Of a stretch of 64,000 bases of DNA, positions 13,932-42,528 are shown piece by piece (position 1 is the stretch's first letter; the number at the start of each line of letters is the position of its first letter). Where the stretch lies: IMG/VR virus record IMGVR_UViG_3300029305_003259, positions 32,001 to 96,000 of that record; one strand, given 5' to 3'. Both the position numbers and the translations under genes were made by a program. The notes beneath the pieces are model-generated. The model saw only the letters and a program-made list of their open reading frames with translations. It was not told the origin of the DNA and searched no databases. This stretch comes from a virus (lineage: Duplodnaviria; Caudoviricetes).

Positions 13932-14248
13932 TGGCTGTATTAAAATATAAAGACCCAACTACTGGCGAAGTTTGCACAGTAGGAGCACCTAAGATAAAAG
14001 CTCCAACTTATGTATCTTCAACTATGTTAGCCACCTCTTGGGTAGACAACACTTATAGCTTCGAAGCTGACTACCCACATGTAGATTTTGATATTTCAAT
14101 TGAGGTAGCTCCTACTGCTACCGTAGAACAATTCGAGGCATTTGGAGAAGCAATGATTTGTGGCTCAGCCGATACTAATATTGCCACTGCGATTAATGGA
14201 GCACCTTCTATTGACATTCCAATTGTCATAAAGGTGGTGGGTAAATGA
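13931..14248 (+). CDS. Small tail-fibre adaptor-like protein
   Basis: LKYKDP.TG motif shared with ORF 12291; W...P.IDI.I beta module. Confidence 0.55.
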   Translation: MAVLKYKDPTTGEVCTVGAPKIKAPTYVSSTMLATSWVDNTYSFEADYPHVDFDISIEVAPTATVEQFEAFGEAMICGSADTNIATAINGAPSIDIPIVIKVVGK

Positions 14249-17200: not shown

Positions 17201-18357
17201 ACCCACAGGTTGCAGAACAACCCGGTTTTGCAGTAGGTTCTATGTCTAATACTTATACTAGTTATGGTATAGCTACTGGAGTTCGTTATGATGTAACGCT
17301 ATCCAATTCATTATTTACAATGAATGAATTGTCTTATCCTTTTGATGCACAGACTTTCACTTCTAGTTATAATCTTTATCTACTTGCACTTAATAAAGCA
17401 GATGTTCTAGATAATAGATTGTTCTATGGTAGATTGTATTATACTCGTATTTATGAATCTGATGTTTTAGTTCGTGATTATGTTCCAGTTAAGAGGGTAT
17501 CTGATGGCGCAATTGGTCTATACGATAAAGTCAATCAAACATTCTACTCTAACGCAGGCACCGGGAACTTCACAGCTGGTGCAGAGGTTCCTGAATCATT
17601 TAGTTATTTCTTGATTTCCCCAATTAAAGCTTATGGTACTTGGGAAGTAGGGACTACCAGCAGTGTAAGTATTAACAATCAGAATGTTGATATCGATGAG
17701 GCTACCATCTTTAATCTAGACTTTGTAAAACTAGTTAGATTCACTACTGACTTTACAGCAAAAGGTGATGATTGGATTGAGGAGGGTGGCACATTCACTT
17801 TCAATCCGGCAACCGCAGCCTATCCCGGATTGTATCAAGCGGAAGGCAGTACACAATTCGGCACACTTACAACCTATGATAGTACGGAATGGAAAGCAAA
17901 ACGGTTAATAATTCCGTTAGGCGGTTCTCTTGAAACTTTCCACGCAGAAACGGAATGTTTCTGGGTATCATCCGATGCAAACAGAATGGGTCGCTTGATG
18001 CTATGTTTCCAAGACGAGGATGGAAACTTTTTGTTCCACATCATTATTAATGATGGTTGGGGTCGTTCCAATAGCATAAGCATCGCCTATTTCAACGCAT
18101 TGAACTCTAATCTGTTGAAATTCGTAGATGCCGTATCTGTCAGCCCGTATAACAATGTTCCGTTGCGCTTTACGCTGGATTATGACGGCAACAAGATGAA
18201 CATTGGATTTTCTTATAACGGCGGGGGATTTTCCTATAAATCGGAAACCTATGCTTTCCCTGCGATTGCAAATGCGGTGGTATATTTCGCCTACTATCCG
18301 ACATCTAACCCGACCCCGCTGATGAATATTCGTTCACTAACAGTAGAACAAGCATAA
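14245..18357 (+). CDS. Large multidomain receptor-binding/adhesin protein (two DUF6273-like domains, three LEYIESTGTQYIDTG lectin-like repeats, C-terminal beta-sandwich)
   Basis: Two VG..V..NV.G..TEFIVV.QG.P...YD.SCDG.WLLMK...FLLS..E...WW.R...RPA.IL units; three LEYIES.GTQYIDTG...LVR.(F/Y).P..R.SD...GL.D.VN..FY.NAG.G.F units. Confidence 0.75.
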   Translation: MSLQVLTQGGAGGASASIQVNGLSETDSVKAVQKIKNVIENPDYKEYRVLKGQLALGDVAVGETVRLNVSGVATEFIVVNQGKPSDLYDDSCDGTWLLMKGIEQGSTWNNSNYSGNSYGSSAVHRYLNSTFLGTLDAGIQSVVIQAKIPYVNGTGSGGSVASGSNGLSAKVFLLSGYEVGFTTSDDSRFPIDGSKLSYFLSGSGTSANNKRIAYLNGNDDYSWWLRSPYTAGTEMVFLVNDQGMKGQSLPSPKRNRPAMILPTNLSVKDGFIDGTEVQQGKLLSSASVGDIVKMNVGGTPTEFIVVQQGNPDSSLYDESCDGAWLLMKDIHNTAMYTTIGNASYNFAMIQNSLSIFLGKLDENVLNAVKTVKIPYLEIEGAKNDIKRTLFSGTEGLSTKAFLLSVYEVDPSRTGSPKDGTCLDYFKSASTSDRIASFEGTTTAWWTRTGWGTYADTQSYLVGDNGSTSTTSVKTYCGVRPAIILPGDTIITDDFIGGSISEPSSVETYTPLEYIESTGTQYIDTGYLPQQHDEVSAKFEMTEILEYNRLIGAATGSSGAAYYGCNPITQLNGYFDIGYYNWYRPNSIPCEKDTIYDYYASLSDGSQEYTINDANMSGDLTGFVEIPCSYFVFSVNHDGSPEWGSSESSCCPAKLYGLSISNNSVLIRNFVPAKRNSDGVLGLFDTVNSVFYTNAGTGDFVAGPEVSQYIEAVVDGRTVNGRWVDMINPEYVELPVTENEAIDGYTRLEYIESSGTQYIDTGFTPSSARSFKFSFDAAFLSETNAIYGTGRSYAGFYSSPSIAQFALYQTIVQISSVSYDTNKHHFVLDGVNLTATIDDNSASIPYSSGSPSDYTWVLFGYSHASFNASRLWGAQIEENGVLVRNFIPARRDSDSVVGLYDLVNGVFYTNAGSGEFVAGEELSQFTKEYIQLEYIESTGTQYIDTGYKPNTNTKLEIGASTTDTTNDKPLFGVRKSNGVDGFLCWFNPQVAEQPGFAVGSMSNTYTSYGIATGVRYDVTLSNSLFTMNELSYPFDAQTFTSSYNLYLLALNKADVLDNRLFYGRLYYTRIYESDVLVRDYVPVKRVSDGAIGLYDKVNQTFYSNAGTGNFTAGAEVPESFSYFLISPIKAYGTWEVGTTSSVSINNQNVDIDEATIFNLDFVKLVRFTTDFTAKGDDWIEEGGTFTFNPATAAYPGLYQAEGSTQFGTLTTYDSTEWKAKRLIIPLGGSLETFHAETECFWVSSDANRMGRLMLCFQDEDGNFLFHIIINDGWGRSNSISIAYFNALNSNLLKFVDAVSVSPYNNVPLRFTLDYDGNKMNIGFSYNGGGFSYKSETYAFPAIANAVVYFAYYPTSNPTPLMNIRSLTVEQA

Positions 18358-19847: not shown

Positions 19848-21482
19848 ATGGATAAAAGGATTAAAATAACCGAAGGATTACGAGATTATGTTGAAAGACT
19901 AAATTTCGAGGCAATCAGATATAGAGATTTACTTCACTCTGTTAGAAGAGATTCTTCTCCTATGACAGATGATGAATGGCAAAGTTCGCTCGATTATTAT
20001 AGGGAACTGAATGCTGAGGCGCAGTATTGCCTTAAAGTTGCCATGGATGAAATTTATGATATGTATAAAGATGAAATAAAAGATTCCCCTTGGCATATTA
20101 ATTTCTCTGATTGTGATCTCGTAATTGGGAGCACCTCGAGTGAGCCAATAATGATTAAAGAAGAAACTTATAACGACAAATTAAGAAGACTTTATCCGCC
20201 TGAAAAAAATGTGCCGCTTGCTATTAATGGTACATATACCAAGGACATCACATTGCAGGTTACAGACGCATGTAATATGGCTTGTACATACTGCTACCAA
20301 CATAATAAGGGAACGCACTCTATGACTTTTGATGTTGCAAAGAAGTTTATCGATATGATTTTGGATGCCGATGAACGAACAAACACATATATCACTTCTA
20401 CGAAGTGCGATGGTGCAATTATTAATTTCATAGGCGGTGAACCTTGGCTGGAAATTGATTTAATCTCCAAGGTCAGTGATTATTTTATTGGCGAAGTATT
20501 TAGACGCAAGCATCCTTGGGCTATAAAGTTTGTATTTAGTGTATGCTCAAATGGCCTCCTACATTTTGATTCAAAAGTTCAAGAGTATATGAAAAAGCAT
20601 ATTGATCATTTTGGATATAACATTTCTATCGATGGCAACAAGGCTTTACATGATTCGTGCAGAATTGATTTGACTGGCAATGGCACATATGATAGAGCCA
20701 TTGCTGGTGTTAAGGACTTTAAAGAAAATTTTGGCGGAAATATGGGCAGCAAAATGACCATTGCACCTGGTAATATTGATAAAGTATTTGATGCGGTATC
20801 TTTTATGATAGGAGATAGCGGATATAGAAATATTAATCTAAACTGTGTTTATGAGGAAGGTTGGACACTAGAGCATGCCAATACTCTTTATTGGCAATTG
20901 CATAAATTGACTGACTGGTTATATGATAATAATCTTTTACATACGACCAGATTATCCATGTTCACAGAAATGTGTGGCAAGCCTATTCCAGAAGACAATG
21001 ACAGTAATTGGTGTGGAGGAGTAGGCCTCATGTTAGCTGTTGATTATAAGGGAGATATTTTCCCATGTCTTCGTTATATGGAATCTTCTGTTGATAATAA
21101 AGTTCCTGCTTATGTTATAGGGAATATTCATTCAGGTATTAATATTGAGAAAGAACATTGTGATCGTGTAAATTGCCTCGGATGTATCACAAGAAAGTCT
21201 CAGTCAACAGATGAATGTATTAATTGTCCGATTGCAATGGGTTGTGGTTGGTGTAGTGCATATAATTACGAAGTATTTGGCACGCCAAATAAAAGAGCGA
21301 CCTATATTTGTTGCATGCATAAAGCAAGAGTTCTTGCGAATGTTTATTATTGGAGACTTAGAGGCATAGATTATCCTATGAATTGCCCAAAAGAATGGGC
21401 AATTGAAATAATAGGAGAAGAAGAATATGAAAAATTGAATTCTATGAAAGTGGGTGAAAGAAATGGGGTTAGTATCTGCTGA
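19848..21482 (+). CDS. Radical SAM/SPASM peptide maturase (CXXX-repeat target family, TIGR04115-like) with fused N-terminal accessory domain
   Basis: CNMACTYC (CxxxCxxC), FIGGEP, SNG, ISIDG, NWCG...G.IFPC, CINC.IA.GC.WC...C.MHKARV.AN.YYW. Confidence 0.9.
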
Positions 21483-26044: not shown

Positions 26045-26701
26045 TTGATTATGACAAAAATTTATCTTTCACCAAGTTCACAGCCTGAGAATAAATATGC
26101 TTATGGGAACACAGATGAACAAACGCAATGCAGAAAAATTGCAAATGCATGTGAAAAGGCGTTGAAAAGATGTGGATTTGAAGTTAGGAACGGGCAAACT
26201 GGTGATCATATAAGTAGAACTAAGGAATCTAATGCTTGGAAGGCTGATTTACATGTTGCAATTCATACGAATGCTTTTAATGGTTTGGTTAGAGGAACAA
26301 GGATGTTCTATTTTAATGAAACCGGAAATAGCTATAAAGCGTGTAAAGCAATTTATGATATTTTATCTAAAAATAGTCCAGGAACAAGTGATAATATGAC
26401 AAGGAATCAGAATTTGTACGAGGTTTATTATACTAATTGTTCTCCAGTTTATATAGAGGTAGCGTTCCATGATAATGAATATGATGCTAAATGGATTGTA
26501 CAAAATACAGTTCAAATCGGAGAGTGGATTGCTCATGGAATTTGTAATTACTATGGAGTTAAATATATTACATCTGGTACAAATTCTGTTTCTAAAACAT
26601 ATCAAGTTGTTTGTGGTTCATTTGGAGTAAAAACGAATGCGGAAAAGAGAAAACAAGATCTTGCTAAAGCAGGTTTTGATTCATTTATACAAGTTAAATA
26701 G
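26045..26701 (+). CDS. Endolysin: N-acetylmuramoyl-L-alanine amidase (Amidase_3) + SPOR-like domain
   Basis: E...L...GF.V, R...SN...ADL..AIHTNA, YIEVAFHDN; C-terminal YQV.CGSF..K.NAE....L...GFDSFI. Confidence 0.85.
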   Translation: MIMTKIYLSPSSQPENKYAYGNTDEQTQCRKIANACEKALKRCGFEVRNGQTGDHISRTKESNAWKADLHVAIHTNAFNGLVRGTRMFYFNETGNSYKACKAIYDILSKNSPGTSDNMTRNQNLYEVYYTNCSPVYIEVAFHDNEYDAKWIVQNTVQIGEWIAHGICNYYGVKYITSGTNSVSKTYQVVCGSFGVKTNAEKRKQDLAKAGFDSFIQVK

Positions 26702-26702
26702 C

Positions 26703-26725
26703 GGAGGCCAATGGCCTCCTTTTTT
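26703..26725 (+). terminator. Intrinsic terminator
   Basis: GGAGGCC-AAT-GGCCTCC followed by TTTTTT. Confidence 0.75.
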
Positions 26726-26727
26726 GA

Positions 26728-27228
26728 TTGGAGGGATTTAAATTGAAGATATTATCATTTGATCAAAGCACCACTAGATCAGGATATGCCATATTCATAA
26801 ACGGTAAATATGACCATAGTGGCGTTATAGATAAACATACAATAAAAGATTCAGAAGCTAGATTCAAGGAAATGTATGAAGGCATACATGATTTGATAGT
26901 TACAGAAAAACCAAATATTGTAGTTTTGGAAAATACCCAAGCACAGGGAAATAATATGGCAGTGTTTAGATTGTTGTGTCAATTACAAGGTGCAATCATG
27001 GGCATGTGTTATGCAAGAGGAATTAGATTTTGCGTGCTGGCTCCAACAATGTGGAGGCGAATTTTGCAATTTTCACAAGGGCCAAAGATAAAAAGAGAAG
27101 AACTTAAGCGGCAGAGTATGGAATATGCTAAGAGATTTAATATTGAGGACTCAGAAGATAGAGCCGAGGCAGCATGTATTGGGGCTGCTTACATTATAAA
27201 TAATGCCGAAGGCATAGATATAGAATAA
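26728..27228 (+). CDS. RuvC-like Holliday junction resolvase
   Basis: ILSFDQS...SGYA, VVLE, P..WR, ED.AEA..IG acidic motifs of the RuvC fold; likely start TTG ~26743. Confidence 0.8.
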   Translation: MEGFKLKILSFDQSTTRSGYAIFINGKYDHSGVIDKHTIKDSEARFKEMYEGIHDLIVTEKPNIVVLENTQAQGNNMAVFRLLCQLQGAIMGMCYARGIRFCVLAPTMWRRILQFSQGPKIKREELKRQSMEYAKRFNIEDSEDRAEAACIGAAYIINNAEGIDIE

Positions 27229-27250: not shown

Positions 27251-27775
27251 ATGACAATTAAGGAATTTGTGGAACTAACTAAAACTAAGGGCTGGATGCC
27301 CATGACTGTTGCAGACCAGAATGAGAAGATTAAGGCCACATTAAATGTTAAGTCTTATCTTAGCATTAAGGATAAGAAAAAACTGGTAAATGATATTGTT
27401 GATGAGACCGTTATTTATGAAAACGGACTTATTAAATTCAATGGCATAGATCAGTTCCTCTGTTACACGATGAGATGTATCGAAGCTTATACTGATTTAG
27501 AAATTGATGATATGGAAGACAACTATGACCTACTGTGTTCCACTGGTCTATTAAATAAAATCTTACGCACTTTTGAAGAGGAATACAATTCTATTCTGTC
27601 TCTACTTCAGATGCAATGTGATTATGTATTAATGGATAATAGTGTTACTGCCAATATCAATGTATTATTGACTGCGGCTACAAATGCTATTAATAAGTTA
27701 GGCGACTCTGCTGGCGACATGTTCAAAAATGTTAATCCAGCAGATTTTGCTGCAATTCTATCTAAATTAAAGTAA
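27251..27775 (+). CDS. Hypothetical protein, possible tail assembly chaperone
   Basis: 174-aa helical protein, SD AGGAG, two genes upstream of the TMP. Confidence 0.5.
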   Translation: MTIKEFVELTKTKGWMPMTVADQNEKIKATLNVKSYLSIKDKKKLVNDIVDETVIYENGLIKFNGIDQFLCYTMRCIEAYTDLEIDDMEDNYDLLCSTGLLNKILRTFEEEYNSILSLLQMQCDYVLMDNSVTANINVLLTAATNAINKLGDSAGDMFKNVNPADFAAILSKLK

Positions 27776-27780
27776 GGTAG

Positions 27781-28371
27781 GTGGGTTTTGTGGCAAAAAG
27801 ATATGATGATTTTAATAAAGTTTACAAAGCAGTAAAGCAAAACGCTAAAAGGGCCGCAATATCTGCCGCAAAACAGACAACAAAAAGAATAGCAAATGAT
27901 ATGCATAAAGAGGCCCTTAAAGGATTGGAATATTATTATAAAAATTACGACCCTGATGTATATGAAAGAACTTATAATTTAAAAAACGCAATTAGACCAT
28001 ATTTTAAAGATACCTCTACAGATAAAAAAATTAATGTTGAAATAGGCATAGTATATGATGAGTCTTATTTAGAGACATATAAAAGTAAATCTTGGAGGCA
28101 TCAAAGTGGAAATGATTGGATTTCCAGAGAAGATGATGGGTTTGATTGGGATTCAGGCAATAATGGCGTTCCCGAACCTGATTGGATTTTAGAAAACTTT
28201 TTACGTGGTATTCACCCAAGAACTACAGTTGGATATGCTTATGCACCGGTGCAAGACCCTAAGAGCCAAATCCAAATTATGAATGATTTTATTAATGATA
28301 AAGTTCAAATATTAATGGATGAATACATGAATACCGCTCTTTTACGAGAATTTACAAAACGTATGCGTTAA
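27781..28371 (+). CDS. Putative tail completion (HK97 gp10-like) protein
   Basis: Basic N-terminal helix followed by Y.P..Y.RT..L..AI; immediately upstream of the TMP. Confidence 0.45.
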   Translation: MGFVAKRYDDFNKVYKAVKQNAKRAAISAAKQTTKRIANDMHKEALKGLEYYYKNYDPDVYERTYNLKNAIRPYFKDTSTDKKINVEIGIVYDESYLETYKSKSWRHQSGNDWISREDDGFDWDSGNNGVPEPDWILENFLRGIHPRTTVGYAYAPVQDPKSQIQIMNDFINDKVQILMDEYMNTALLREFTKRMR

Positions 28372-28386: not shown

Positions 28387-31300
28387 TTGAGAGAGTTTAA
28401 ATTTAGAATAACCACAGATATATCCGACCTTGAAGCACAATTTAAGGGCGGTGCAGATGCTCTGGCTAAAATGGCCAAAGCAGCTGGTCAGGCGGAAAAT
28501 AAATTAGATTTTTTAAAAGAAACAGGAACATATTTAGATCAAATTGATGCCGCACTTAGCGAATTAAAGACAAAATACCCAGATTTGTTTAATAAAATAT
28601 TTAATAATGTTGATAAACAGATAAAAGATGCTATCGCTCCAATTAAACAAATGACAAAAGAAATGGACACATTGTTTGCGCATGTTGGTGCGCAGCTACA
28701 AGGAATGTCAAGTGGTAAATTAGATGGTAGTAGAAAAGAAATTAATCAAATAATTGTTGGCATGAAGGCTCTTGCCAATGCATTAAATGTAAAGATTGAT
28801 TTTAAAGTTTTTGAAGATATGGTTAACAACGGAGATGAAGCAAAGGTCATAGCAAATTCTATGATTGGCAGCCTTGAAAAGATTGCTAGTGCATATACTG
28901 ACATTGGCAAAACATCTTTAGAAGCTTCAAAATCTATAGATAGTATTGGTAAAAATAAAACTATAAAGGACGCTGCCGAAGATGCCAAAACTCTTAATGC
29001 GGAGTTAAAAAATACCAAAAAGGCTGCTAAAGAAGCAAAAAAAGAAGTAGAGACTCCTGTAAAGCAAAAAGATAGTGGTTCTAAGCCACAGAACGCAATG
29101 AGTTATGACGATTTGCTGAAAGCTGTAAATAAAGCCAAAGATTTATCAAAAAAAATAGATGATGGCGATGATAGTGCGTTTGATAAAATGGACTCGCTTT
29201 TAGGCTCTTTGCAGAAAAAATTCAAGCTTAATGAAGATGGCGTTGCTAGATTTGAAGAGGCAATGCAAGATTTAGATATAACCACAGAAGAAACAATGCG
29301 AAAATTGCAGACTATACTTGGTGATAAATTTCCATCTGCAATCCAAGAAAGCAAAGAGGAAGTCAAAGAATTAACCAACGCTATAAATTCTGCGGATAAA
29401 GATTTAAACAATGTAAGCGTTGCTGAGGCTAATGCAAAAGCAACAGAAGAAGCGGCGGACGCTGCGCGAAGAATTGCCGATGAAACAGAAAGGGCTAAAA
29501 ATGCTGCCTTAAAATTAGACGAAGCATTAAAAGGAGCTGGAAAAAGAACAGAGGGCGCAATTCTTTACGATTCACAGACAGGAGCATATGGTGATGCTAT
29601 AAAAGGTGAAGACCATCAGGTAAAAATACCAACTTCTGATGGTAAAAAATATGATACAGAAATGCATACTCACCCTTGGGATTTTGCCGCTCCATCTGTC
29701 GAAGATTTTGATGTATGGATTAACAATTTCGATGAATTTAAAAAGTTTGCAATTCGTGCAAATAAAGAAATATTATCTATTGATTTTTCATCCATTGATG
29801 CTGATGGTTTAAAAAACATTAGAGACCAATATGCTGTAGCAGTTCAAAAGATAGAAGAAGAATTTGGTCAATATGCAACGGATATTAACGCGATGAATGG
29901 AAAATTTGGATCATATGATGGATGGCAAAATGCAGCACAACAAGCTATGCAAAATGCTCTGAAGAATATGCTTGATCCAAAAATGTTTTCAACTATCGAT
30001 TTCCAAAAAGTTGTCGAACAATCAGGGTCTACAAAGGCAACAGTGCCTCTATCTGAACAATATGCTGGAGCAAGTGAAGAGGTTAAAAGATTAGTTAATG
30101 AACTTGCAAAGCTTGACGATCTTGATGAAACAGACGAGATTGCTGCAAAGTGGAACCATTTAGCAGAAATTGCCCCAAATATTTATAAATCAATGCGCGG
30201 AGATGCATGGGAGAATTTAAAACAAGACATTCTTTCTAATACTTCTGCTGTTGAAAATTTAGGAGAAGAAATAGATGAGGCATTAACGCTAGAAACTGGT
30301 AATCTTGAGTCAAAATTGGAGAGACTAAAGGATCTTGCCGATGAATATGGCATGCAGATTACTCAGCGAGATCGTAATACTTTAGAATTTTTAATCGACC
30401 AGGATAATGAGAAAGAATTGACTGGCGCAAAAGCAGACAGACTTTCTGAATTGCAAGACAAAATTGATGCGGCAGATGATGCGTTAATTGCATTTGAAGA
30501 ACAATACGATAAAATAATTCTAAAACTTGAAAATGGCAAAAAGGTAGAAATTCTACCTAATGATAAAGGCCTTCGTGATTTATATAAATTCATGGATGAA
30601 GGCGACGGAAGAACTTTTAATGGTATTGATGTTGCCGATGTTGAATACGTCCGAGCAGAACAGTTTGTAAGAACACAAATTGAGTCATATGAAGAATTAT
30701 GTAAAGTTGTCGAAAGATATAATGAATTGCGTCATAAAAAGGACAGAACTTCAAAAGAAAACATTGAATTTCAATCACTTCTTGACCGTATTAGAGCAAC
30801 TGAGCCAGAAAACGGCATAACAAGTCCAGATTACGATAAACGATTAATAGAATTTACTAGAATATTTAAAGAGTGGCTTTTAAATACGGATTCTCTTGCA
30901 AAATATCTTGGCATTGAAATTCCGCAAGCAGCAGTGATTGCTGAATCTGCGGTTGAAAATCTTGGACAAGAAATTAAGGAATCTTTATCTCCAGAAGCCG
31001 TAGACTCTAAGTCTGTTATGAAACAATTCCAAGATATTTGGAAACTGAAAAACGACTTAAAATATGACCTTAATTATAATGCAAAATATATTGGCGATGA
31101 TGCTGCAGTAAGCGAAGCAAAACAACAAGTTGCCGAATATGATGAAAGACTAAAACAACTTGCCGTATCTTATGTTAGCCTTGGTGGCGCAGTTGATGAT
31201 TTTAAATCTAAGGAAAAACGTGAGTTTGCAGCGGATGTTGTTAACAATTTAAACGAGCAAAATCAGCAGGCAGAAAGTCAACTCGAAGAAACAAATCAAA

Positions 31301-34300
31301 AGTTAAGAGAGCAAGAAGATCTTTATCAACAGGTTCGCACTGCAATTAAAGGCACTTTAGAAGAAGTTGTAGGTATGGATTATACCGCAGTTGCTCTTGA
31401 AGACATCGAAAGAGAAATCAAAGATGGTCTAATTACTACTCTTGAAGAAGCCATTATTCGTTTTAAAGAAATGAATAATATAGCCGACGATGTTCGTATT
31501 GCCGCTGTAGGTGAATATCAACGTGTAGCTGATAGCTGGGATTATTATCAAGGAAATAGATATGTTGATGAAGATAATGAAACCGTTGTTAATAAAAACG
31601 AATATGACTCTTTAAAGCAAAAATCATCAGGTGAAGATATTGGACAAGAGTATAAAGATTTAGAAGCTTTACGTAAAAAGGTTGAAGAAGTAGAAGCTGC
31701 TATTATAAATAAAACATTAGCGTTTCATCAAGAGGCGGACGCTGTAGAGGTTAATGTAAGAGATGAAATTGATAGGCTCGAGTTGCTGCGTATTGCAATT
31801 ACTCAAGTGGAACAAGCAATCAAAGATAAAACTGCAGCATTCTATAAAGAACGTGATGCGGTTGAGTTCAATGTTGAAGACGAAATATATCAACTTGAAA
31901 AGCTACGCAAGAAGCTTGAAGAGGTTGCTGGACAGGTACAATTAGTTGGCAAAATTAATTTGGGCGCCGATGGTTCAGGAGAAATAAATTCTCATATGCT
32001 GACTGATCCACAGGGAAACATCGTAGAGGGATTTAGAGGTCTGCATGGATCTTATGGCGGACTCACTTCTAGTAGGCCGGATGGTGCTACATTTTTTACA
32101 GATAATATAGATGTTGCCAGGTCTTACGCTGGAATTAATGGTAAAATTGAAAAATCTAACTTTTCAATGCGCAATCCATTTGAAATAGACGCAAATGGGG
32201 CCTTTTATGATGAAATTGAATATTTAGGCAATGGCGCAGACGAAGCAAGTAATAAAGTTATAGATTTAACTAATGCAATCATAGGGTTGGAATTTAGGTT
32301 ACAATCATTAGATGAATACGATTTACATTCAGATGATCTTCAAAATGAAATTAAAAAAATAAACGAAGAAATAGAATCTTTATTGATTGAGCGTCAAAAA
32401 ATATTTAATGATAAATCAAACCCTTATGGGATCTATTCTACAGATGAATTAGTTGATTTGGCAAAGTCTAAAGGACATGACGGTATGGTAATAAAAAATC
32501 TTCGCGATGTCGTTGATGATGGTCGTACCGATCCTATTCCGTCTACGATAATTGTTACTTTTGATGATAGTCAGATACAATACCTTGAAACAATTGCTAG
32601 TTTTGAAAATGGCAACAATAATATTTCCACTCCTCTTGAAGGCGAAGACCTTAAAGGCGAACAACTTGGCATGGATCTCGATGCCGCCGTACAAGATGCT
32701 AAAGAGTTAGCTGCGGCTGAAGAAAAGGTTGAGGCCGCAGTAGAGCAAATAAATGATACACTTGATGAACAAATATATAAAAGGAAGCAATTGCTTGAAG
32801 CATCGGATACACAAAAATATGTAGACCTTTTGAATGAGCGTAGTAAAAATCTTCCAAAAGATTCTATTGGTTATGGACATAAAGAAAAGATTGAAACCGT
32901 AGCTAATAGCAATATGCTAAAAATTTTTAATTCTTTAAAAAAACAAAATGGTTCTATGAGTTTTATTGGGGATAGCGATGAAACTCGAATTAGGTTATCT
33001 TCAATAAAAGAAATGTTGGAACAAATAGGTTATACTCTTTCTGAACCAGTATTTAATAAAAAGAACGGCTTATTATCTACTCAAATTATACCTATAGATG
33101 GCCAAGCCGTAACAGATTTAGAGAAAGCTAATCAAATTCTAAAAGATATTTTTATAAATAATACTAGAACATTTCAAAGTGCAGATGAACTTACTGCTGA
33201 GGCACAAAAGGCAAATGAGCGTGTGATAGCAGAAGAAAAGGCCGAAGCAGCCGTAGAACAAACTAATGATGCTCTTGATGAACAGATTGCTAAAGAATCT
33301 GAATTAATTAAACAAAAAGGAACATTAAATTTCTTAGAAAATGAAGCAAAAGAACATTCTAAGATTGCTAGTACCAAGTGGTCTGATGATCAAAAAGAAG
33401 CATATGAACAGCTTATAGCTAAGATTCAGGAATATAAGAAGTCTAAGAGCAAGTTAACAGATGAAGAGCTAAATAGCATTAGAAAGATCGTAAATGGGTA
33501 TAAGATTCAGGCGCAAACCATTATTAATGCACAGGAATCCGCAGAAAAGCGCTCTAAGGCGTTTGGATTAAAGGAGCTTAATAAGGCTACTGGTAGTAAA
33601 AATAATCTCGAAGCATTAGGTAGAGGGTTTGATTCTAAGACCGTAAAAGATGGGCTCGAGAGCGTTCGTCATGCATATACGGCTTTGGTTGAAGCTCAAC
33701 AGAAGTTCAATGATGGTCATGAGCCTACCGAAGATGAGAGAATTGCGTACCAGCAATTAACAAATGAATATAATCAGGCTGCGAAAGCTCTTGATACTTT
33801 ATTTAAGGCATCAAAAAAGATGTCTGAGAATAGTCGTTGGTCTGTTGATATTGACCAATCAGAATTAGACAATCTTGAGAAGTCAATGCAGAAGGCTATT
33901 CAAGCATCCGAAAATGGTAGAGTAAAGTTTGGACAGTTTAATGCTGAAACTGGACAACTTGAATATTCTGTTCGTAGAGCAAATGGTACTTGGGATCATT
34001 TTACTGCTCAGGTCGATCAAGCTGGAATGGCCGTCGTTGGTCTGAATGGCAAGATTAAGACGACCAATGGAATAATCAGAGAATTTACTGCTGGTGTTGC
34101 CACTAAGTTCAAGAATGCTATGCAAGTATTCTCAGGTTATGACCTATTCTTTGAAGCCGTAGCACAAGTAAAGCAAGGTATTCAGTATGTAAGAGATATT
34201 GATACGGCTTTAACGGAACTTAAAAAGGTAACTAATGAAACAGATGAAGCATATGCACAATTTTTGCAGACTGCTTCTAAGACGGCTGGAGTCGTTGGTA

Positions 34301-37300
34301 GTACTGTAAAAGATATTACTACAATGACTGCCGATTGGGCAAGACTCGGATATTCTATGCAAGAAGCTTCTTCTCTTGCAGAAAGTACCGCTGTCTTATT
34401 AAATGTTTCAGAGTTCACTGATGCGACAGATGCATCAGAGGCACTAATTAGTACCATCCAGGCATATGGATATGCTGCTGATGAGAGTGGCATTGTTGTC
34501 GATACATTAAACGAGGTAGGTAACAATTTTGCCGTATCGAGCGATGGATTAGCGACAGCATTACAAACATCTGCAAGCGCTCTAATGTCTGCAGGCAACG
34601 ACCTGAACCAATCAGTCGCACTCGTTGCCGCAGCTAACAAGGTTCTACAAGACCCATCTCAAGCAGGCGCAGCTCTCCGTACTATTGCTCTACGTATCCG
34701 AGGAACTTCACTTAAAGTTCTCGAAGAAATGGGCGAAGAAACTGACGGCGTAATTGAAAGCGTCAGTAAGCTACAAGAAAAAGTTAAAGCAATCAGTGGA
34801 GTAGATATCCTTGATGATACTGGCGCATATCGTGATACATATGATGTACTTAAAGATTTAGCAGAAGTCTGGGAAGAAATAGGTCAAAAGGATCCTCGTG
34901 GACAGGCTGCGCTTCTCGAACTATTAGCCGGTAAGAACAGATCAAATGCTCTTGCAGCAATTCTAACAAACTTAGATGACTTAGAGGGTGCATATGATGC
35001 CGCATTACAGGCAGAAGGTTCTGCACAAAAAGAGTTAAATACTTATTTGGATTCTATTGAAGGGCGAGTATCAATATTCACAAATTCAGTCCAAACAATG
35101 TGGATGAATGCTATGAATACTGAGGCAATAAAATGGTTTGTAGATAAAGGCACGCAGCTTGTGCAAATATTTGATGCCATTAACCAAAATAATCCTATTG
35201 GTATTTTTGGTGGACTAGCTACTGTTGGAGGACTTTTATTTGGCGCATGGAAAGGAATACCAGCTCTATGGACTGCCGTTGGAGCAGCATCTAAAGCAAA
35301 AATTGCTGGCATAGTTGGCGAAACTGCAGCAATTCAAGAATTAAACGTACAACAAGGAATTGCTAATCTAAATGCATCAACCGCAATTACTTCTGACATA
35401 AAACAAGCAGCAATGTCTGCTATTTTGACAGGGGAAACAGGCAAGGAAACAATTGCAACAAATCTTAATACTAAAGCTGCAATTTTAAATGCTTTAGAGA
35501 AAAAAGGAATAGTTGGTGCTGATGCAGAAGCGATACTTTCTGCTTTTGGGCTATCGGCCGCAAATACTACTCTGACTGGCACGTTTACCATATTAACGGC
35601 ATCTGTTAAAAAATTATGGGCAGCATTTTTAGCAAGTCCACTTATGCCCATTGTTGCCGGTCTTGCAGTATTAGGAGCCAGCTTATGGGCAATAGATGCA
35701 GCAACCACGTCTTTCAAGGAAGCCAAAGAACAATTGGAAGAAACTTCTGAAGAATTAAATAATGTTCAGGAAAACATTAAATCTTTAAATCAAGAACTAG
35801 AAACAACAAAGAATCGTATCGATGAATTGTCTAAAAAAGATGATCTTACTTTCTTGGAAAAGGAAGAGCTCAAAAATCTAAAAACATACAATGCTGAGCT
35901 TGACCGTCAAATTGCTCTGGAAGAACAAAGAAAGAAAATTCTTGAAAGACAACAGATTTCCGATGCTCTTGAAACATTCAAAAAAGATGACTCTTTTAAA
36001 AAGATTACTTATTCTGAAACTGATGAAAATGGCGTTATAACCGGAGTAGTCAATGAGTTGGCCCCAGAAGTAGACCGCAAACTAGAAGACATAAAAGAGG
36101 CACAACAAGGTCTAGAAACTGCAAGAGCCGAACTTGAGTCTGCAAATGAAAAATATTTATCTAATGATGATAAAGAATCTAAGAAGGCCGTAGAAAAGGC
36201 ACAAAAGAGCGTTGATGAGTATACGGATATTATTAGAGAATCTGAAAATGATATTAATGAAATTTTAGCAGAACGCGCAGAAACGTATGGAAATCTTGAA
36301 TGGCAATTTGGAGATCCCGATCAATTAACTAATGATCAAAAAGAATTAAATGCATTTTTAAAACAAATGTATGATGATTCAGATAGATTTGCTATATCTA
36401 TGGATAGTACGGGGAAAGCTCTGGAAGCGGCATTTTCTCGTGTATCTGGTCAAACTGAATTCAATGATAACTTAAAAGATATTCAAGCAAATGTTGGAAT
36501 TACAGGCGAGCAACTTCTTGAGATGTGGGAGAATGCTACCCCTGAAACTGAAGACCCGTATGGTTTACGTGCATTTATTCAGAATCTAATTGACGCTGGA
36601 GTTATTGCTGATACTTCTGCTGAATCTATGCAGAAGGTTGTCGATATGTCCATCATGTTAAGCGATGGAACCAGTGAGATGGAGCGTGCAAACAAGAAAC
36701 TTGCTCGTTCTCAGAAGAGACTTGAATATTATAATCTAGCAAAAAAATTAAATAGTTATACGGATGGAATTGAAGATTTAACCGATGCACAAAAAGATGA
36801 GATTTCTCAAATCAGAACCAAAATGAGTGCGTTGGCCGTAGAGATCGATGCTTATGATATTCTTGGTGCTAAGATTTCCGAAGTCAAACAATCTTTTGAG
36901 GAGTTCTCTCAGGCACAAGAGGCCGATACTGCAAGTGACTTTACCGATGACATTTCAACAATGCTTCAAACAATCGTTGAGGGTTATCAAAGTGCGGAAA
37001 TGGGCTCTGAAGCATTTAAGTCTGCATTTACATCATTAATTCCAGATAGTGTATATGAAGACATTGATACTCTTCAAGGAAAATATGAAGCTGCTGCAGC
37101 ATATATTAGAGACACTTTAAGTGATTACTTCAAGATAGAATATGATGACGATGGCTTAATTAGCAGCATTGAAGTAACCACTAAAAACATTCAGAACTTT
37201 ATCGAAGATGCCAAGGCCAAGGGCCTAATGAATTTCGCCAATGGTGTTTGGCAAGTAAATGAAACCGACTTTGAAACATTTGCTGAGAAGATGGGCATTA

Positions 37301-40300
37301 CTGAGGAAATGCTCGTTGCTCTTGGTGAACAAATGGATAAAGTTGATGCTGACTGGATAACCGGAGACCTTACCAGCTTCTTTGACTCGTTTGAGATGGG
37401 CACTGAAGCAGAAATTTATAAAAATGTTCAGGCTTTGGCTGCTCTAGATGGTCAACTTATTGATGGCGAAATTACACTTGATGAATATACTGCGGCATAC
37501 AAAGAATATACGAGTGCAATAGAATCAAATACAGATGATGCAATTGCAAATATTCAAAAGTATAATGACGCAACCATAAATGTTGATGATATTACTGCGC
37601 AATTAGATGAGGCTCAGAAAAAGTTAAGCGAATTAACATCGAATCCAAATGCCGATGAAGCAGAGATACAAATTCAAACAACAGAAGTAGATAATTTAAT
37701 AACTAAACTAGGCGAGGCAATTCAGGAAAAGGGTAAACTTACAGCTCCTAGTTTAATTGAAATTCAATTTGCTCAAGATTCGATTGATACACAAATAGCC
37801 GGCGTACAGCGGCAACTGATTGATGCGAATATTTCCTTCCCGGCAATGATAGACGGAAAATTAAATCTAGAAGAAAATGGCTCAATCATTGAAAAGGATG
37901 GTAAATATGTAGTCAATACTGAGCTGGAAGGTTTGGAAGAATCTGAGCTTGCGTTATTACAAGAATATGCAGATCTTGCGAATACTCAAGGTGTCATTAA
38001 TGTTTATGTGAAATCTTCCGAAGATACCCAAAAGAAAGTCGATGATTTAAAGAAAACTGCGGAAGATACTCAAAAAATTCTAGAAAATCTATCCGTTGAA
38101 GTTGAAGCTGCTCAAGCAATTTCAACTTTGAAAGAAATAAAAACATTAGCTGATTCTCTCAAAGATAAAGAAATTAATGTAACAACATATACTGAAACCG
38201 TTGATAAAGGTACAAGAAAAGAAACATTTTGGGAAAAATTATGGCCATTTGCAAAAGGCACTGCTTATTCAGATGGCAACTGGGGAGCTGGAGTAAGTAC
38301 TAATAAAGCTCTTGTTGGAGAACTAGGCCCAGAGTTGCGTGTACGTAATGGTAAGTACGAACTTATTGGAGAAAATGGCGCTGAATTTACCGACGTAAGA
38401 CCTAATGACATAATCTTTAACCATAAGCAAACTGAAGAAATTTTAAAGAATGGCCATATTAGTTCTCGCGGCAAAGCTTATGTTGAAGGTAAAGCATTTG
38501 CAGGGACTAGCGGAACTATGTATACTGGCGGCGCAATTGCATCTCAATTTGGCGGCGAAGTTCCGAATTGGTTCCCTCGTAATAGTACATTACAAAATCT
38601 TGGGCATATTGTTGAAGATGCATCTAAGGATGCCAAAGATGAATTTGATGAAATTATTGATTGGTTCGAAATCCTAACAGAAGAAATTGAGCATCAAATC
38701 TCTGTTATGGAAGCTCAACTTGATAATGCGGTTGGCGTTCAAGAAAAGTCAGGCATTTATGCAGGTCTTGCAGTCCTTGAAAAGAATAAAATGTCTGCAT
38801 TTACAAAGGGGATCGACTTATATACTAAAGAAGCAAATAGATTCTTAAGTCAAATTCCTGATAAGTATAAAGCTATGGCTAAAGATGGTAGCGTTGCGAT
38901 TACAGAATTTGTTGGAGAAGCTAATGAATCTACTGTAGAAGCAATCAACAACTATCGTGAGTATGCAAGCAAAGTAGATGATTTACAACTTCAATTAATA
39001 GAGACAGAGACTCGCATTTCTAACCTCAGAGTAGAAAAGTTGCAAATGATTTCTGAGGAATATGAAAATCAAATTAGTCTTGTAGAACATCTAAATAGCA
39101 AAATCCAATCCCAGATTGACTTGCTAGAGGAACAAGGTGAACGAGTATCCAAGCATTATTATGAAGCCATGATTAAGAATACTGAGAACCAAATTAATCT
39201 TATGAAGGCTCAGAAAAATGCAATGCAGGCGGAGCTTAATAGTGCTGTATCTAGCGGAGATGTTGAATACGGTTCAACTGATTGGTATGAGATGCAAGGC
39301 GCTATTAATGATGTTGAGACTAGTATTCTTGATGCAACGGTCAGTATTGAATCTTTCAATAACGCTATTCGTGACCTACACTGGCAAGAATTTGACCGCA
39401 TTGTTGAAGCCGTATCTAATCTAGCAGATGAATCAGCAAACCTTCGTGAACTTCTTGGTGAAGATTCCGACATGGTTGATGAACTTGGCGAGTGGACTGC
39501 CGAAGGCGTTACTTCTATCGGTCTATTGGCCCAAGAGATGGAAAATGCTGAGTATCGTGCAAAACTATATGCCGATGAAATTAAATGGCTAAATGAGAAC
39601 TGGAAAAAAGAAGGCTATAGTTTAGATGAGTACAACGAGAAACTACAAGAATTAAAAGATGGTCAATGGGATTCTATCGAAGCATATGAAGCCGCAAAAG
39701 ATGCTATTCTTGACCTCAATGAAGTTCGTGTCGATGCAATCAAGGAAGGTATCCAGAAAGAAATTGATGCCTATGAAGAACTAATTGAAAAGCAAAAAGA
39801 ATCTTTACAGGCACGCAAAGACGAACATGATTGGGCCAATACCATTGAAGAGCATACAGATGAAATAGGTTCTATCCAACGTCGTATCGATGCGCTTAAT
39901 GGTGACACATCTGCATCCGCTGCAGCACAGCGCAAACAACTGCAAGAAGAATTAGCTGAAGCAGAAGAAAAACTAAGAGAAACTTACTATGACCATGAAA
40001 TTGAAACTCAGCAAGAAGCTCTTGATAAAGAACTTGAAATGTATCGTGAGAATAAAGAGGATGAGATGGCAACATGGGACGAGTATCTCACTCACGAACA
40101 ACAAGTGCTTCTCGATAGCTTTAATACTGTTAAGACAAATACGGAATTAATTCATAGTACAATTCTTGATACTGCTACAAGATATGGTATTGAAATTACA
40201 AAGAATATCACCGAGCCTTGGAAGCAAGGTCAAAATGCCGTAGCGTCTTATAGTACTGATTTTGACAACGCAACGAGTCATTATATCTCTCAACTTGGTC

Positions 40301-41022
40301 TTGTTAAGCAAAATCTTATTGATTTGCAGACTCAGGCAGATGCGACTGCAAAAGCATTAGCTGCTGCACTTAATCAAAAATCAAATTATGTTCCAAGTGC
40401 TACGCCTTCTGCGCCAGCTGGGAACAATAAGCCTTCTAGCAATACTGGAAGTCAACCAGCCAATTCCTCAAAATCAGGAACCGAAAATTACACGGTTAAA
40501 TCTGGAGATAACCTTTGGAATATTGCTAAAAAAGAACTGGGAGACGGCACTAGATGGAAAGAAATTTATGATTTGAATAAAGATAAAATTAGTAATCCTA
40601 ATCTTATTTATAAAGATCAGAAATTAGAAATTCCAAAATATGCAAAGGGCACTACAGGTGTTAAGACTGATGAGTTAGCATGGATTGATGAAAACGGGCT
40701 AGAAGAAATTGTTATGCATGCTCAGGGTGGTAAGCTTTCTTATTTAACCAAGGGTAGCGCCGTTATTCCTCATGATATTAGCGAAAATCTAATTGAATTA
40801 GGAAAAGTTGATCCGAAGACTTGGATAGATAAGAATAGGCCCAATACTACTCCTGCCAATATTATTGCCCAAAATAATAATATTGAACTTAGTGTTGGGA
40901 AACTAATTCATATTGAACATGCAGATAAGGATTCTATCCCAGAGATTCAAGCTGCTGTTCAGAAACAACTGGACTCTTATATGAAAAACTTAAATGCCGG
41001 TATAAAGAAATATGCTAGATAA
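28387..41022 (+). CDS. Giant tape measure protein (4211 aa) with N-terminal JAB and ART-like domains, TP901-type TMP core, hydrophobic segments and LysM
   Basis: [13 protein letters not shown]...[11 protein letters not shown]...G.ALRTI..R core at ~34190-35100; hydrophobic stretches ~35190-35700; Lys[13 protein letters not shown]...NPNLIY..QKL.IP at ~40489-40635; followed by Dit/Tal. Confidence 0.92.
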
Positions 41023-41067: not shown

Positions 41068-42528
41068 TTGATGGCTGTATACCAAAAAAAGTTTATGTTA
41101 AATAATCGTAGTAATACCGATTTTGGACTTATTGTTTGCGCAATTTCTCCAGATGATGGTGAAACCGATAGTTACTTAACTGTCGAGTCTGTATATACGG
41201 AAAGTTTTGACGGAAGCAGAAGACATGATTATGGTGCAAAATATACGGAAACAGCAGTTCTATATATTACAATGCTGAAAAATAATTATGCAGATTTTAC
41301 TAAAAAAGAATTAAGAGAAACTTTAGACTGGTTAACCGGATTGCGCAAAGTATCATGGTTAGATTTGTATAATGATGATAGTGGCGAAATATCATTTTCA
41401 TTTCTTGGCCGTGTAACCGATGTTAAGTTGCAAAAATTAGATGCCAGAGTAGTGGGACTGAATGTTGAATTTACATCTGTTAGTCCATGGGCATATTCAG
41501 GTATTAATCACAATGAAATGTCATTGGACGGGAATGCCACAAGATACTCAATTTGCAATGGTTCGGATGAAATAGGTGTTTATGTATATCCAAATGTTAC
41601 TTTCATTAATAAAATTGCAAATGGAACTTTAAAAATTATGAATTATACAACTGGAGAAGAGACTATTCTTCGTAATTTGGGAATGAATGAAGTTGTTAAG
41701 TTAGACAGTAATAAGACAATTTATTCAGATAAGCCAATGAAAATTTTTGGCGATGACTTTAATTTTAATTGGTTAAGATTCGCACAGGGATATAATCATA
41801 TAGAGATTACCGGTATAGGACATCTTACTATTGAACACAGAGATATTATGAAGGTTGCGGATGCATTTGATGATAACTGGGATATGAATACAAATCCTGC
41901 GGCAATGAATTTATTATTGCGTACTAAGGTAGATCTGCCAGCATCAAATTGGACTTATGTTAATACCGCACCTGGCGTTATTACTACGTATTCTCAGCCA
42001 GTAAATTATTTGAATGTTACAAGCAATTCTATGATTAATCTTCAGGCAAATGAACAACAAACACTGGACTTACAGGCTTCCGATATAGAAATCCAAATAG
42101 TGAATGACAATGGTGATGTTACCGCTTTTGCATATGGCGGAGCACCAGTAATAGACTATGTCTTTCAGGCCACTATAGAAGAGACAAATGTAGATATATC
42201 TCATCGTTATGATATCGTTCATTTATATGCTAACGGATGGACTGGTCAGGGGAGCGTATATACGCAACCAGTTTATATTAAAGATATGACTAAGAATTCC
42301 ATCATTGATTTAGATTTGTCCGATGTACAAATTGCAAAACTTGAAGGTTCAGAAACAACTTTATTAGTAACTAATGATAATGGTACTGCCATTGCTTATG
42401 CTTTAGGATTTAAACCCGATGAAGATTATCATGTCAATGTCATTATTACAGAAACAACAGACGATGTAGCTTTGGCTAGAGCCGCATTGGACGATGGACT
42501 AATTTATGCTGAACCATTACCATTTTAA
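41068..42528 (+). CDS. Distal tail protein (Dit) with two extra C-terminal beta repeats
   Basis: First gene after TMP; S.DFGL.V, WL, F...SPWAY, FNFNWLR...GYN.I motifs. Confidence 0.7.
   Translation: MMAVYQKKFMLNNRSNTDFGLIVCAISPDDGETDSYLTVESVYTESFDGSRRHDYGAKYTETAVLYITMLKNNYADFTKKELRETLDWLTGLRKVSWLDLYNDDSGEISFSFLGRVTDVKLQKLDARVVGLNVEFTSVSPWAYSGINHNEMSLDGNATRYSICNGSDEIGVYVYPNVTFINKIANGTLKIMNYTTGEETILRNLGMNEVVKLDSNKTIYSDKPMKIFGDDFNFNWLRFAQGYNHIEITGIGHLTIEHRDIMKVADAFDDNWDMNTNPAAMNLLLRTKVDLPASNWTYVNTAPGVITTYSQPVNYLNVTSNSMINLQANEQQTLDLQASDIEIQIVNDNGDVTAFAYGGAPVIDYVFQATIEETNVDISHRYDIVHLYANGWTGQGSVYTQPVYIKDMTKNSIIDLDLSDVQIAKLEGSETTLLVTNDNGTAIAYALGFKPDEDYHVNVIITETTDDVALARAALDDGLIYAEPLPF

Follow-up and report, generated by a model that had tools for sequence, protein, structure and literature searches.

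The stretch of DNA analysed here, 64,000 nucleotides long and called the window below, belongs to an IMG/VR virus record of 128,431 bp (estimated to be 78% complete) from an uncultured gut phage. It contains an open frame of 4,211 codons and 12.6 kb (positions 28387-41022, + strand, as are all features given below) that encodes a giant tape measure protein (TMP), and within the long extension ahead of its ruler core this protein very probably carries a JAB/MPN+-like domain, at residues ~360-550 (29464-30036). The frame starts with TTG 16 nt past the preceding open reading frame (ORF), a spacing that is identical at homologous loci, which also keep the gene order around the TMP. The core was recognized by Pfam as PhageMin_Tail (residues 1970-2174; 34294-34908; 2.2e-20), everything upstream of it forming an N-terminal extension of ~1,900 residues, and a LysM peptidoglycan-binding domain lies near the C-terminus (residues 4035-4083; 40489-40635; Pfam, 3.8e-10). 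Directly upstream of the gene are two ORFs encoding 174 and 196 amino acids (27251-28371), and a pair of ORFs of 160-195 amino acids always stands at this place in the related loci (L001-L012); Pfam gave no match for either of the two in the window, and from their position they probably encode tail assembly chaperones. Directly after the TMP comes a distal tail protein (Dit)-like gene with the N- and C-terminal domains of DUF6558 (41068-42528; Pfam), followed further downstream by genes for large tail proteins and for a siphovirus protein with DUF859 (Pfam). With the TMPs of Brevibacillus phage Sundance, of Enterocloster phage PMBT24 and of the Bacillus SPbeta/phi3T group, the core shares 25-31% identity, and it is the sole part of the protein common to cultured phages. 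Because of the PhageMin_Tail and LysM domains, the conserved upstream ORFs, the Dit-like gene downstream and this similarity of the core, the ORF was identified as a TMP; it has the core expected of such a protein and is encoded at the expected place, after the chaperone-like ORFs and before the gene for the distal tail protein.

The first-pass annotation of the window had proposed an intact JAMM motif inside the TMP, at 29530-29800, and both the residues and their spacing prove to be exact: the protein carries E389...H427-T-H429-PWDFAAP-S437-VE-D440, that is, E-xn-H-x-H-x7-S-x2-D. Glu389 (29551-29553), which is part of the sequence T-E-G-A-I-L and in the structural model described below stands at the start of the strand next to follow helix alpha1, is the predicted general base of the site. 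The two histidines and Asp440 are the predicted zinc ligands and Ser437 is the predicted oxyanion residue (29665-29706), as judged from conservation in the family and from the register with the HxHx7SxxD of Cap3, AMSH and AfJAMM. This pattern, HxHx7SxxD, has a single match across the six frames of the window. Histidine is scarce in the TMP (33 of 4,211 residues); the chance expectation of the pattern calculated from composition is 0.0013, and it was found in 23 of 20,000 shuffles of the protein.

Fold and family of the JAB-like domain

Residues 360-575 were modelled with AlphaFold2 from a 49-sequence alignment (model mf714494f3a8a), with a predicted local distance difference test score (pLDDT) of 91.3 and a predicted template modelling score of 0.81; a first model, made from a 6-sequence alignment, reached a pLDDT of 55 and was discarded. 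The predicted order of elements is helix alpha1, the strand of E389, a beta-hairpin, a strand ending in H427-x-H429 and a helix from S437/D440, and then a second beta-hairpin, in which the family-specific D466-F-S468 lies, followed by three helices and a closing strand. In the numbering of the model, the helix spans 2-21, the strands 29-35 (Glu 30) and 65-69 (His 68 and 70) and the following helix 79-87 (Ser 78, Asp 81), which is close to the numbering of the AfJAMM site (E22/H67/H69/S77/D80). The layout of the predicted secondary-structure elements is that of the MPN fold, and a profile alignment against sequences of the Protein Data Bank (PDB) puts the motif at residues 67-88 of 1oi0_A. The model thus shows a mixed alpha/beta domain after a long helix, in line with the globular island of the first-pass annotation, although the domain extends to residue ~550 and not to 480.

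An MPN fold is also what structure searches with this model point to, as JAB enzymes stand at the top of two independent lists. The Foldseek list against the PDB consists nearly entirely of JAB/MPN proteins: BRCC36 (1.3e-2), CSN5, RadC, AfJAMM, Sst2, Cap3, Rpn11 and Prp8. In VIA-align, an independent structure search over 48,161 representative chains, Cap3 (9ild_A) came first with a Z of 6.7-6.8 (113 of 152 residues, 3.6 Å), followed by Sst2 (6.2), PfJAMM1 (6.1) and, at 5.1-5.7, RadC, Rpn11, BRCC36, a Bil-type deubiquitinase and AfJAMM; a second look with the same tool added BubCD (9ea4, Z 6.9) and a Caldiarchaeum Rpn11 homologue (6.5). All these Z values fall in a range that the tool itself grades as 'middling'. 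The related deaminase fold ranks behind the JABs in the fold lists, and small JAB chains are covered to 70-90% by the domain model.

Relatives of the domain were collected from protein databases by sequence. Word-indexed searches returned eight, and a profile built from six domain slices found 52 at E <= 1e-3 among 1.84 billion representative proteins, 43 of them at E <= 1e-10; a repeat search with a longer-protein profile added only three new sequences. Nearly all of these relatives are metagenomic proteins of 1,400-4,700 amino acids with the domain at position 350-1050. Pfam recognized PhageMin_Tail in 14 of 15 long relatives, so these too are TMPs, and the JAB-like domain precedes the ruler core in every member where both could be placed. 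Megablast and tblastn of the window domain and of a 159-residue member (P0025) gave no match in 50,697 GenBank phage records, a pattern scan of 185,579 species genomes gave no relative, a search of IMG/VR gave a single additional contig with the domain, and PHROGs gave no significant match to the island or to 13 family slices. The domain is the signature of a small TMP family, whose giant members belong to uncultured SPbeta-like siphoviruses and are known from metagenomes. These metagenomic origins and the kinship with PMBT24 suggest that the hosts may be gut Clostridia, such as Enterocloster.

In several relatives (L005, L007, L001 and the record of P0035), the TMP gene is split within the conserved core by an insert of ~1.2 kb, located at 13782-14973 in L005, at 9790-11044 in L007 and from 15269 onward in L001. 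The first ORF of L005 stops at the equivalent of residue 2045 of the window TMP and the next resumes at 2046, and the break in L007 is at 2107/2115; the inserts bear an ORF of 240-315 amino acids with faint DUF2726 or DUF723/CapR-like matches. This looks like invasion of the genes by an intron or a homing endonuclease, and many family members are therefore called as proteins of 1,400-2,200 amino acids.

Conservation of the motif in homologues was borne out by an alignment of 55 members. H427, H429 and D440 are invariant, E389 is kept in 54 and S437 in 51 (the rest being two Thr and two Gly), and family-specific positions are also well kept (G407 in 52, D466 in 54 and S468 in 50). None of the five JAMM residues varies among 13 diverse slices that, save for two close relatives, are 23-42% identical to the window domain, and the catalytic residues are under strict purifying selection. 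The motif had also been called canonical, which describes the exact spacing in this TMP but not that in about half of the family: the gap between Ser and Asp is 2 residues in 28 of the 55 members (this TMP included) and 3-14 residues in the other 27, where it often reads F-S-G-K-D-N or I-S-S-x-x-N. Such variation is unusual for a JAMM site, and these lengths indicate a loop inserted ahead of the Asp-bearing helix.

Sequence comparison with known JAB families agrees with the structural comparison. A profile of 13 family sequences gave 13 matches at E <= 10 among PDB sequences, all weak, of which 8 are JABs: Cap3 (0.12), AMSH (0.3-0.4), AfJAMM (0.7), an MPN protein (1.2) and AMSH-LP (2) are among them, and the two alignments shown per residue (Cap3 and AMSH) are both in register on HxHx7SxxD. 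With Pfam models for Prok-JAB (PF14464, cut-off 25 bits), JAB (PF01398) and RadC (PF04002) under consideration, member-by-member searches gave sub-threshold matches to Prok-JAB in 4 of the 13 (best 3.2e-5), to Toxin-JAB1 in one (0.0098) and to RadC in one (0.06), and one full-length TMP scored 4.2e-5; DUF4329 was not among the matches. In PADLOC, 18 of the 19 matched models are CBASS-type 'JAB' models (CBASS, an antiphage system that signals through cyclic oligonucleotides); the window domain itself matches five PADLOC JAB models (best 9.2e-4), and PDLC00901 matches 8 of the 13 members (best 8.7e-6). The sub-threshold Pfam matches and the PADLOC matches are restricted to the motif region.

Because one family dominates two independent fold lists, the model covers small JAB chains almost completely and the sequence comparisons point the same way, we are confident that residues ~360-550 form a genuine, very divergent JAB/MPN+ (JAMM) domain with the complete set of E389, H427, H429, S437 and D440. 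Some results count against this identification: the fold scores are modest (no Foldseek match to the PDB at E <= 1e-3, and VIA-align Z below 8), Pfam gave no JAB match with the whole TMP or with the island alone, so that no curated model reaches its threshold on the window sequence, and the spacing between Ser and Asp is non-canonical in the members noted above. In addition, phmmer with the island gave nothing significant against PDB sequences. The missing threshold match and the middling fold scores would also fit a non-catalytic relic or a chance motif. The island would then act in the TMP as no more than a spacer or a knob for oligomerisation, and scaffolds are indeed common among MPN domains (MPN-minus). 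However, MPN-minus scaffolds typically lose their catalytic residues, whereas all five positions are kept here across relatives that are no more than 20-35% identical, and the low chance expectation of the motif also speaks against this explanation, which we regard as very improbable. Judged from its predicted site, the JAB-like domain is probably catalytically active.

Other domains of the tape measure protein

Downstream of the JAB-like domain, the N-terminal extension has a second enzyme-like island, an ART-PolyVal-like ADP-ribosyltransferase (ART) domain at residues ~1232-1397 (32080-32577), which Pfam matched with PF18760 at an E-value of 6.8e-7 and 30.6 bits, against a cut-off of 31.2. 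Between the two, at residues 630-770 (30274-30696), lies a module of helices and a small beta-beta-alpha-beta unit that is conserved in ~14 family members, with the core motif K-I-I-L-K-L-x-N-G-K-x-V-E-I-L-P-x-D-K-G-L-R. In the relatives, this module mostly follows the JAB domain at a distance of 150-400 residues, and it precedes the domain in P0049; sequence searches gave no known relative of it, and it may represent a small unit of the ubiquitin-like or beta-grasp kind. The G+C content is flat along the extension (0.35-0.37), so a recent foreign insertion is not indicated.

The TMP of the closest relative (P0002, from locus L003; 4,762 amino acids, 73% identical) has a PBECR5 RNase-like domain at residues 3242-3341 (1.2e-24) and a GA-like domain at residues 2102-2181. 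Both sit in the C-terminal half, where the window TMP has neither, which indicates that cargo is swapped between TMPs of close relatives. In another metagenomic protein of 728 amino acids (P0056), the JAB-like domain (residues 183-257 matched) is joined to an RNase toxin domain, BrnT, at the C-terminus (PF04365, 1.3e-9), which shows that the JAB family is not confined to full TMPs and is also present in effector-type fusions.

JAB-like, ART-PolyVal and LysM domains thus stand together in one TMP, to which homologues add PBECR5 and BrnT, and as the N-terminal extension bears swappable domains of effector type, these TMPs can be called polyvalent. The extension and its JAB domain are accessory to the ruler function, because the TMPs of two cultured phages do without the latter: that of PMBT24 begins ~80 residues before the core and has no JAB, that of Sundance has a 700-residue extension without JAB, and a hidden Markov model search of both records did not find the JAB-like domain. 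A tail of about 630 nm would be expected if the full 4,211 residues served as ruler, against about 340 nm if the ruler began at the core. The polyvalent proteins described previously likewise include giant, virion-associated phage proteins with several effectors, in which JABs of the RadC type accompany ART and PBECR-type domains (PMC5512222). However, their carriers are MuF, portal, N4-vRNAP-like or conjugative-element proteins, whereas the family described here consists of TMPs, and 'tape measure' is absent as a term from the text of that study (PMC5512222).

This likeness raises the question of whether the domain is a RadC-like or other non-peptidase hydrolase effector, in which the JAB scaffold would act on nucleic acids or nucleotides, as is predicted for the RadC JAB domains of polyvalent proteins (PMC5512222). 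A structural match to RadC (2qlc, Z 5.6 in VIA-align; rows 6 and 8 in Foldseek) would be consistent with such an activity, as would the weak RadC and Toxin-JAB1 matches of single members and the presence of deaminase-fold enzymes after the JABs in the fold lists. However, far fewer members match RadC, and with poorer E-values, than match the Prok-JAB and Cap3-type models, so that by Pfam the family (13 members) is nearer to Prok-JAB, and the nuclease role of RadC is itself a prediction. We therefore consider a RadC-like effector improbable.

Foldseek against the viral predicted structures of BFVD gave 22 matches to the domain model at E <= 1e-3 (best 1.7e-7), which include uncharacterised gut-phage proteins, several 'minor capsid proteins' of 520-630 amino acids from uncultured Siphoviridae and some giant-virus proteins; A0A8S5MAK6 and A0A8S5P082 are two of the capsid entries. 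These matches between predicted structures suggest that the fold may also be present on other virion-borne carriers, possibly on MuF-type head proteins.

As for the surroundings of the gene, genes for an Amidase_3 endolysin (2.1e-19) and for a RuvC-like resolvase (2.7e-4) lie at 26045-27228, directly upstream of the chaperone-like ORFs, and the order RuvC then TMP recurs in L001-L011 and in Enterocloster phage PMBT24. The tail-fibre/lysis region upstream also encodes a radical SAM protein of 544 amino acids (19848-21482; PF04055, 6.9e-7) and a protein of 1,370 amino acids with two DUF6273 domains (14245-18357; 3.5e-52).

Substrate and role of the domain

Enzymes embedded in TMPs have precedents. 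SPbeta YomI/CwlP carries a muramidase and a DD-endopeptidase, and T5 pb2 and the Rpf motif of mycobacteriophage TM4 are further cases; these proteins leave the tail at infection. As in the window TMP, a catalytic domain is inserted in the ruler protein, but those enzymes attack peptidoglycan and those of SPbeta lie in the C-terminal, first-exiting part, whereas the JAB domain lies in the N-terminal, last-exiting part, beside an NAD-dependent ART-like domain. The large tegument protein UL36 of herpesviruses, a giant virion protein that enters the cell with the particle, has an N-terminal deubiquitinase; this is an analogy only, as UL36 is a cysteine protease of a eukaryotic virus and has no homology to the domain.

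In the tail module of siphoviruses, a JAB metallopeptidase with which the domain can be compared is that of lambda gpK, a tail-tip assembly protein that combines JAB with NlpC/P60 and has a partner, gpI, bearing a ubiquitin-like protein (Ubl) domain. No other JAB is established in the tail modules of siphoviruses; it presumably acts on a tail protein of the phage at assembly, and gpI has reportedly been assigned as its substrate. However, gpK stands apart as a small protein with a fused NlpC/P60, whereas the domain described here is inside a TMP and has no detectable sequence similarity to it; by Pfam, neither the TMP nor the flanking ORFs contain NlpC/P60 and no neighbour is fronted by a Ubl, so the architecture of gpK is not reproduced.

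We favour the reading that the domain is an active metallopeptidase whose likeliest substrate is the TMP itself or another tail protein of the phage, that is, a maturation cleavage, and we put its probability at roughly 0.4. The domain would hold an extended tail in its groove and cut the peptide or isopeptide bond after that tail, as do Cap3, HvJAMM1 and JABs of the lambda gpK type. The target would be the TMP, in cis or between its three chains, or a partner tail protein; while the tail assembles or once ejection has taken place, the N-terminal extension with its cargo would in this way be trimmed or set free from the part that serves as ruler and channel. A processing role is favoured because the JAB travels with the extension, the PMBT24 TMP lacking both, and because the substrate assigned to gpK is likewise a tail protein of the phage. 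By our own reasoning, three folded domains of ~22 kDa, together with three ART domains, could hardly be accommodated in the lumen of the tail tube unless they are trimmed or unfolded. Furthermore, polyvalent proteins as a rule contain embedded peptidases that set domains free (PMC5512222), and Cap3, in which the Glu is essential, cleaves a linear cGAS-cGAS fusion (PMC10097602), so that JABs of the Cap3 type can be endopeptidases on a polyprotein.

Several observations weigh against maturation cleavage. No cleavage site, Gly-Gly tail or family-wide cleavage motif was identified in the TMPs; a repeated AVENLG spacer, considered as a cleavage site, is present only in this phage and in its 73%-identical relative. 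Pfam finds no ubiquitin-like partner in the TMP or in the neighbouring ORFs, and the module at residues 630-770, considered as such a partner, has no known sequence relative, occurs in the ~14 members only and does not always adjoin the JAB domain. The processing peptidases of polyvalent proteins are zincin metallopeptidases (MPTases), and it is their JABs (RadC) that are read as effectors (PMC5512222); in this TMP and in 15 long homologues, Pfam matched no MPTase or zincin family. A Gly-rich stretch, G-T-G-D, that follows the 630-770 module was also considered; it occurs in several relatives, not in this TMP.

Alternatively, the domain may act in trans as a counter-defence enzyme, stripping the Ubls or the cGAS/DncV-like nucleotidyltransferases that Bil-type or type II CBASS systems attach. 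It would do so after ejection, when the TMP leaves ahead of the DNA, or late in infection, when unassembled TMP would lie beside Bil-modified tail-tip proteins. The nearest solved relatives are indeed deconjugases of defence systems (Cap3, BubCD and, at Z 5.2, the Bil-type deubiquitinase 8tyy_B), Cap3 is the best JAB match by sequence in the PDB, and the PADLOC model that matches most of the members is of the CBASS type. However, the Z gaps among JAB subfamilies are within 1-1.5 and therefore cannot discriminate between them, and PADLOC contains defence JABs only, so that its matches are no proof of a preference over housekeeping JABs. The patchy distribution of the domain among SPbeta-like TMPs is like that of accessory counter-defence genes, and the same polypeptide bears an ART-PolyVal-like effector domain that needs cytoplasmic NAD+. 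The PBECR5 or BrnT RNase domains of relatives fit the injected-effector logic of polyvalent proteins (PMC5512222), and Bil conjugates a Ubl to the central tail fibre of phages (bioRxiv 10.1101/2023.09.04.556158). This explanation nevertheless presumes that the N-terminal part of the TMP reaches the cytoplasm folded and that the host has such defences, and no phage-encoded JAB deconjugase was found in the literature searched. We regard it as possible but doubtful, and somewhat more doubtful still in its most specific form, in which a Cap3-like deconjugase carried as TMP cargo and paired with an ADP-ribosyltransferase would be the first phage eraser of Bil or type II CBASS conjugates.

The comparison with Cap3/Prok-JAB proteins (PF14464; type II CBASS, Bil and Bub) illustrates both the kinship and the distance. 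These proteins have E...HxHx7SxxD in the same order of elements and a similarly small, minimal JAB, and they are the best structural and sequence matches of the domain. However, they are free proteins of ~150 amino acids in defence operons, whereas the domain is internal to a phage structural protein of 4,211 amino acids; it also differs from them in its extra C-terminal helices, in the family-specific D-F-S and, in half of the family, in the insertion between Ser and Asp. Unlike in the operons of Cap3/Prok-JAB, no E1, E2 or Ubl genes were seen near the TMP, and the matches to these families lie below curated thresholds.

The JAB superfamily, enzyme-bearing TMPs and polyvalent proteins were each already known, but in the papers searched we did not find a family of Prok-JAB/Cap3-like domains housed in the N-terminal extensions of giant TMPs. 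As the family (~50 sequence clusters) is matched at threshold by no model of Pfam or PHROGs and has no member from a cultured phage, a model of the family would be useful, allowing better annotation of gut phage genomes. That TMPs carry peptidoglycan hydrolases is known. The presence of a JAB-type (deubiquitinase-like) peptidase with an invariant active site beside an ART-like domain suggests that in some large siphoviruses the ruler protein may be a carrier of polyvalent effectors, a role so far ascribed to proteins of the MuF, portal and N4-vRNAP types. We know of no enzyme assigned to TMP maturation, even in lambda, and if the domain does process the TMP, it would provide a protease for this step. 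If it is instead a deconjugase, it would represent a new class of counter-defence, directed at the ubiquitin-like immunity of bacteria.

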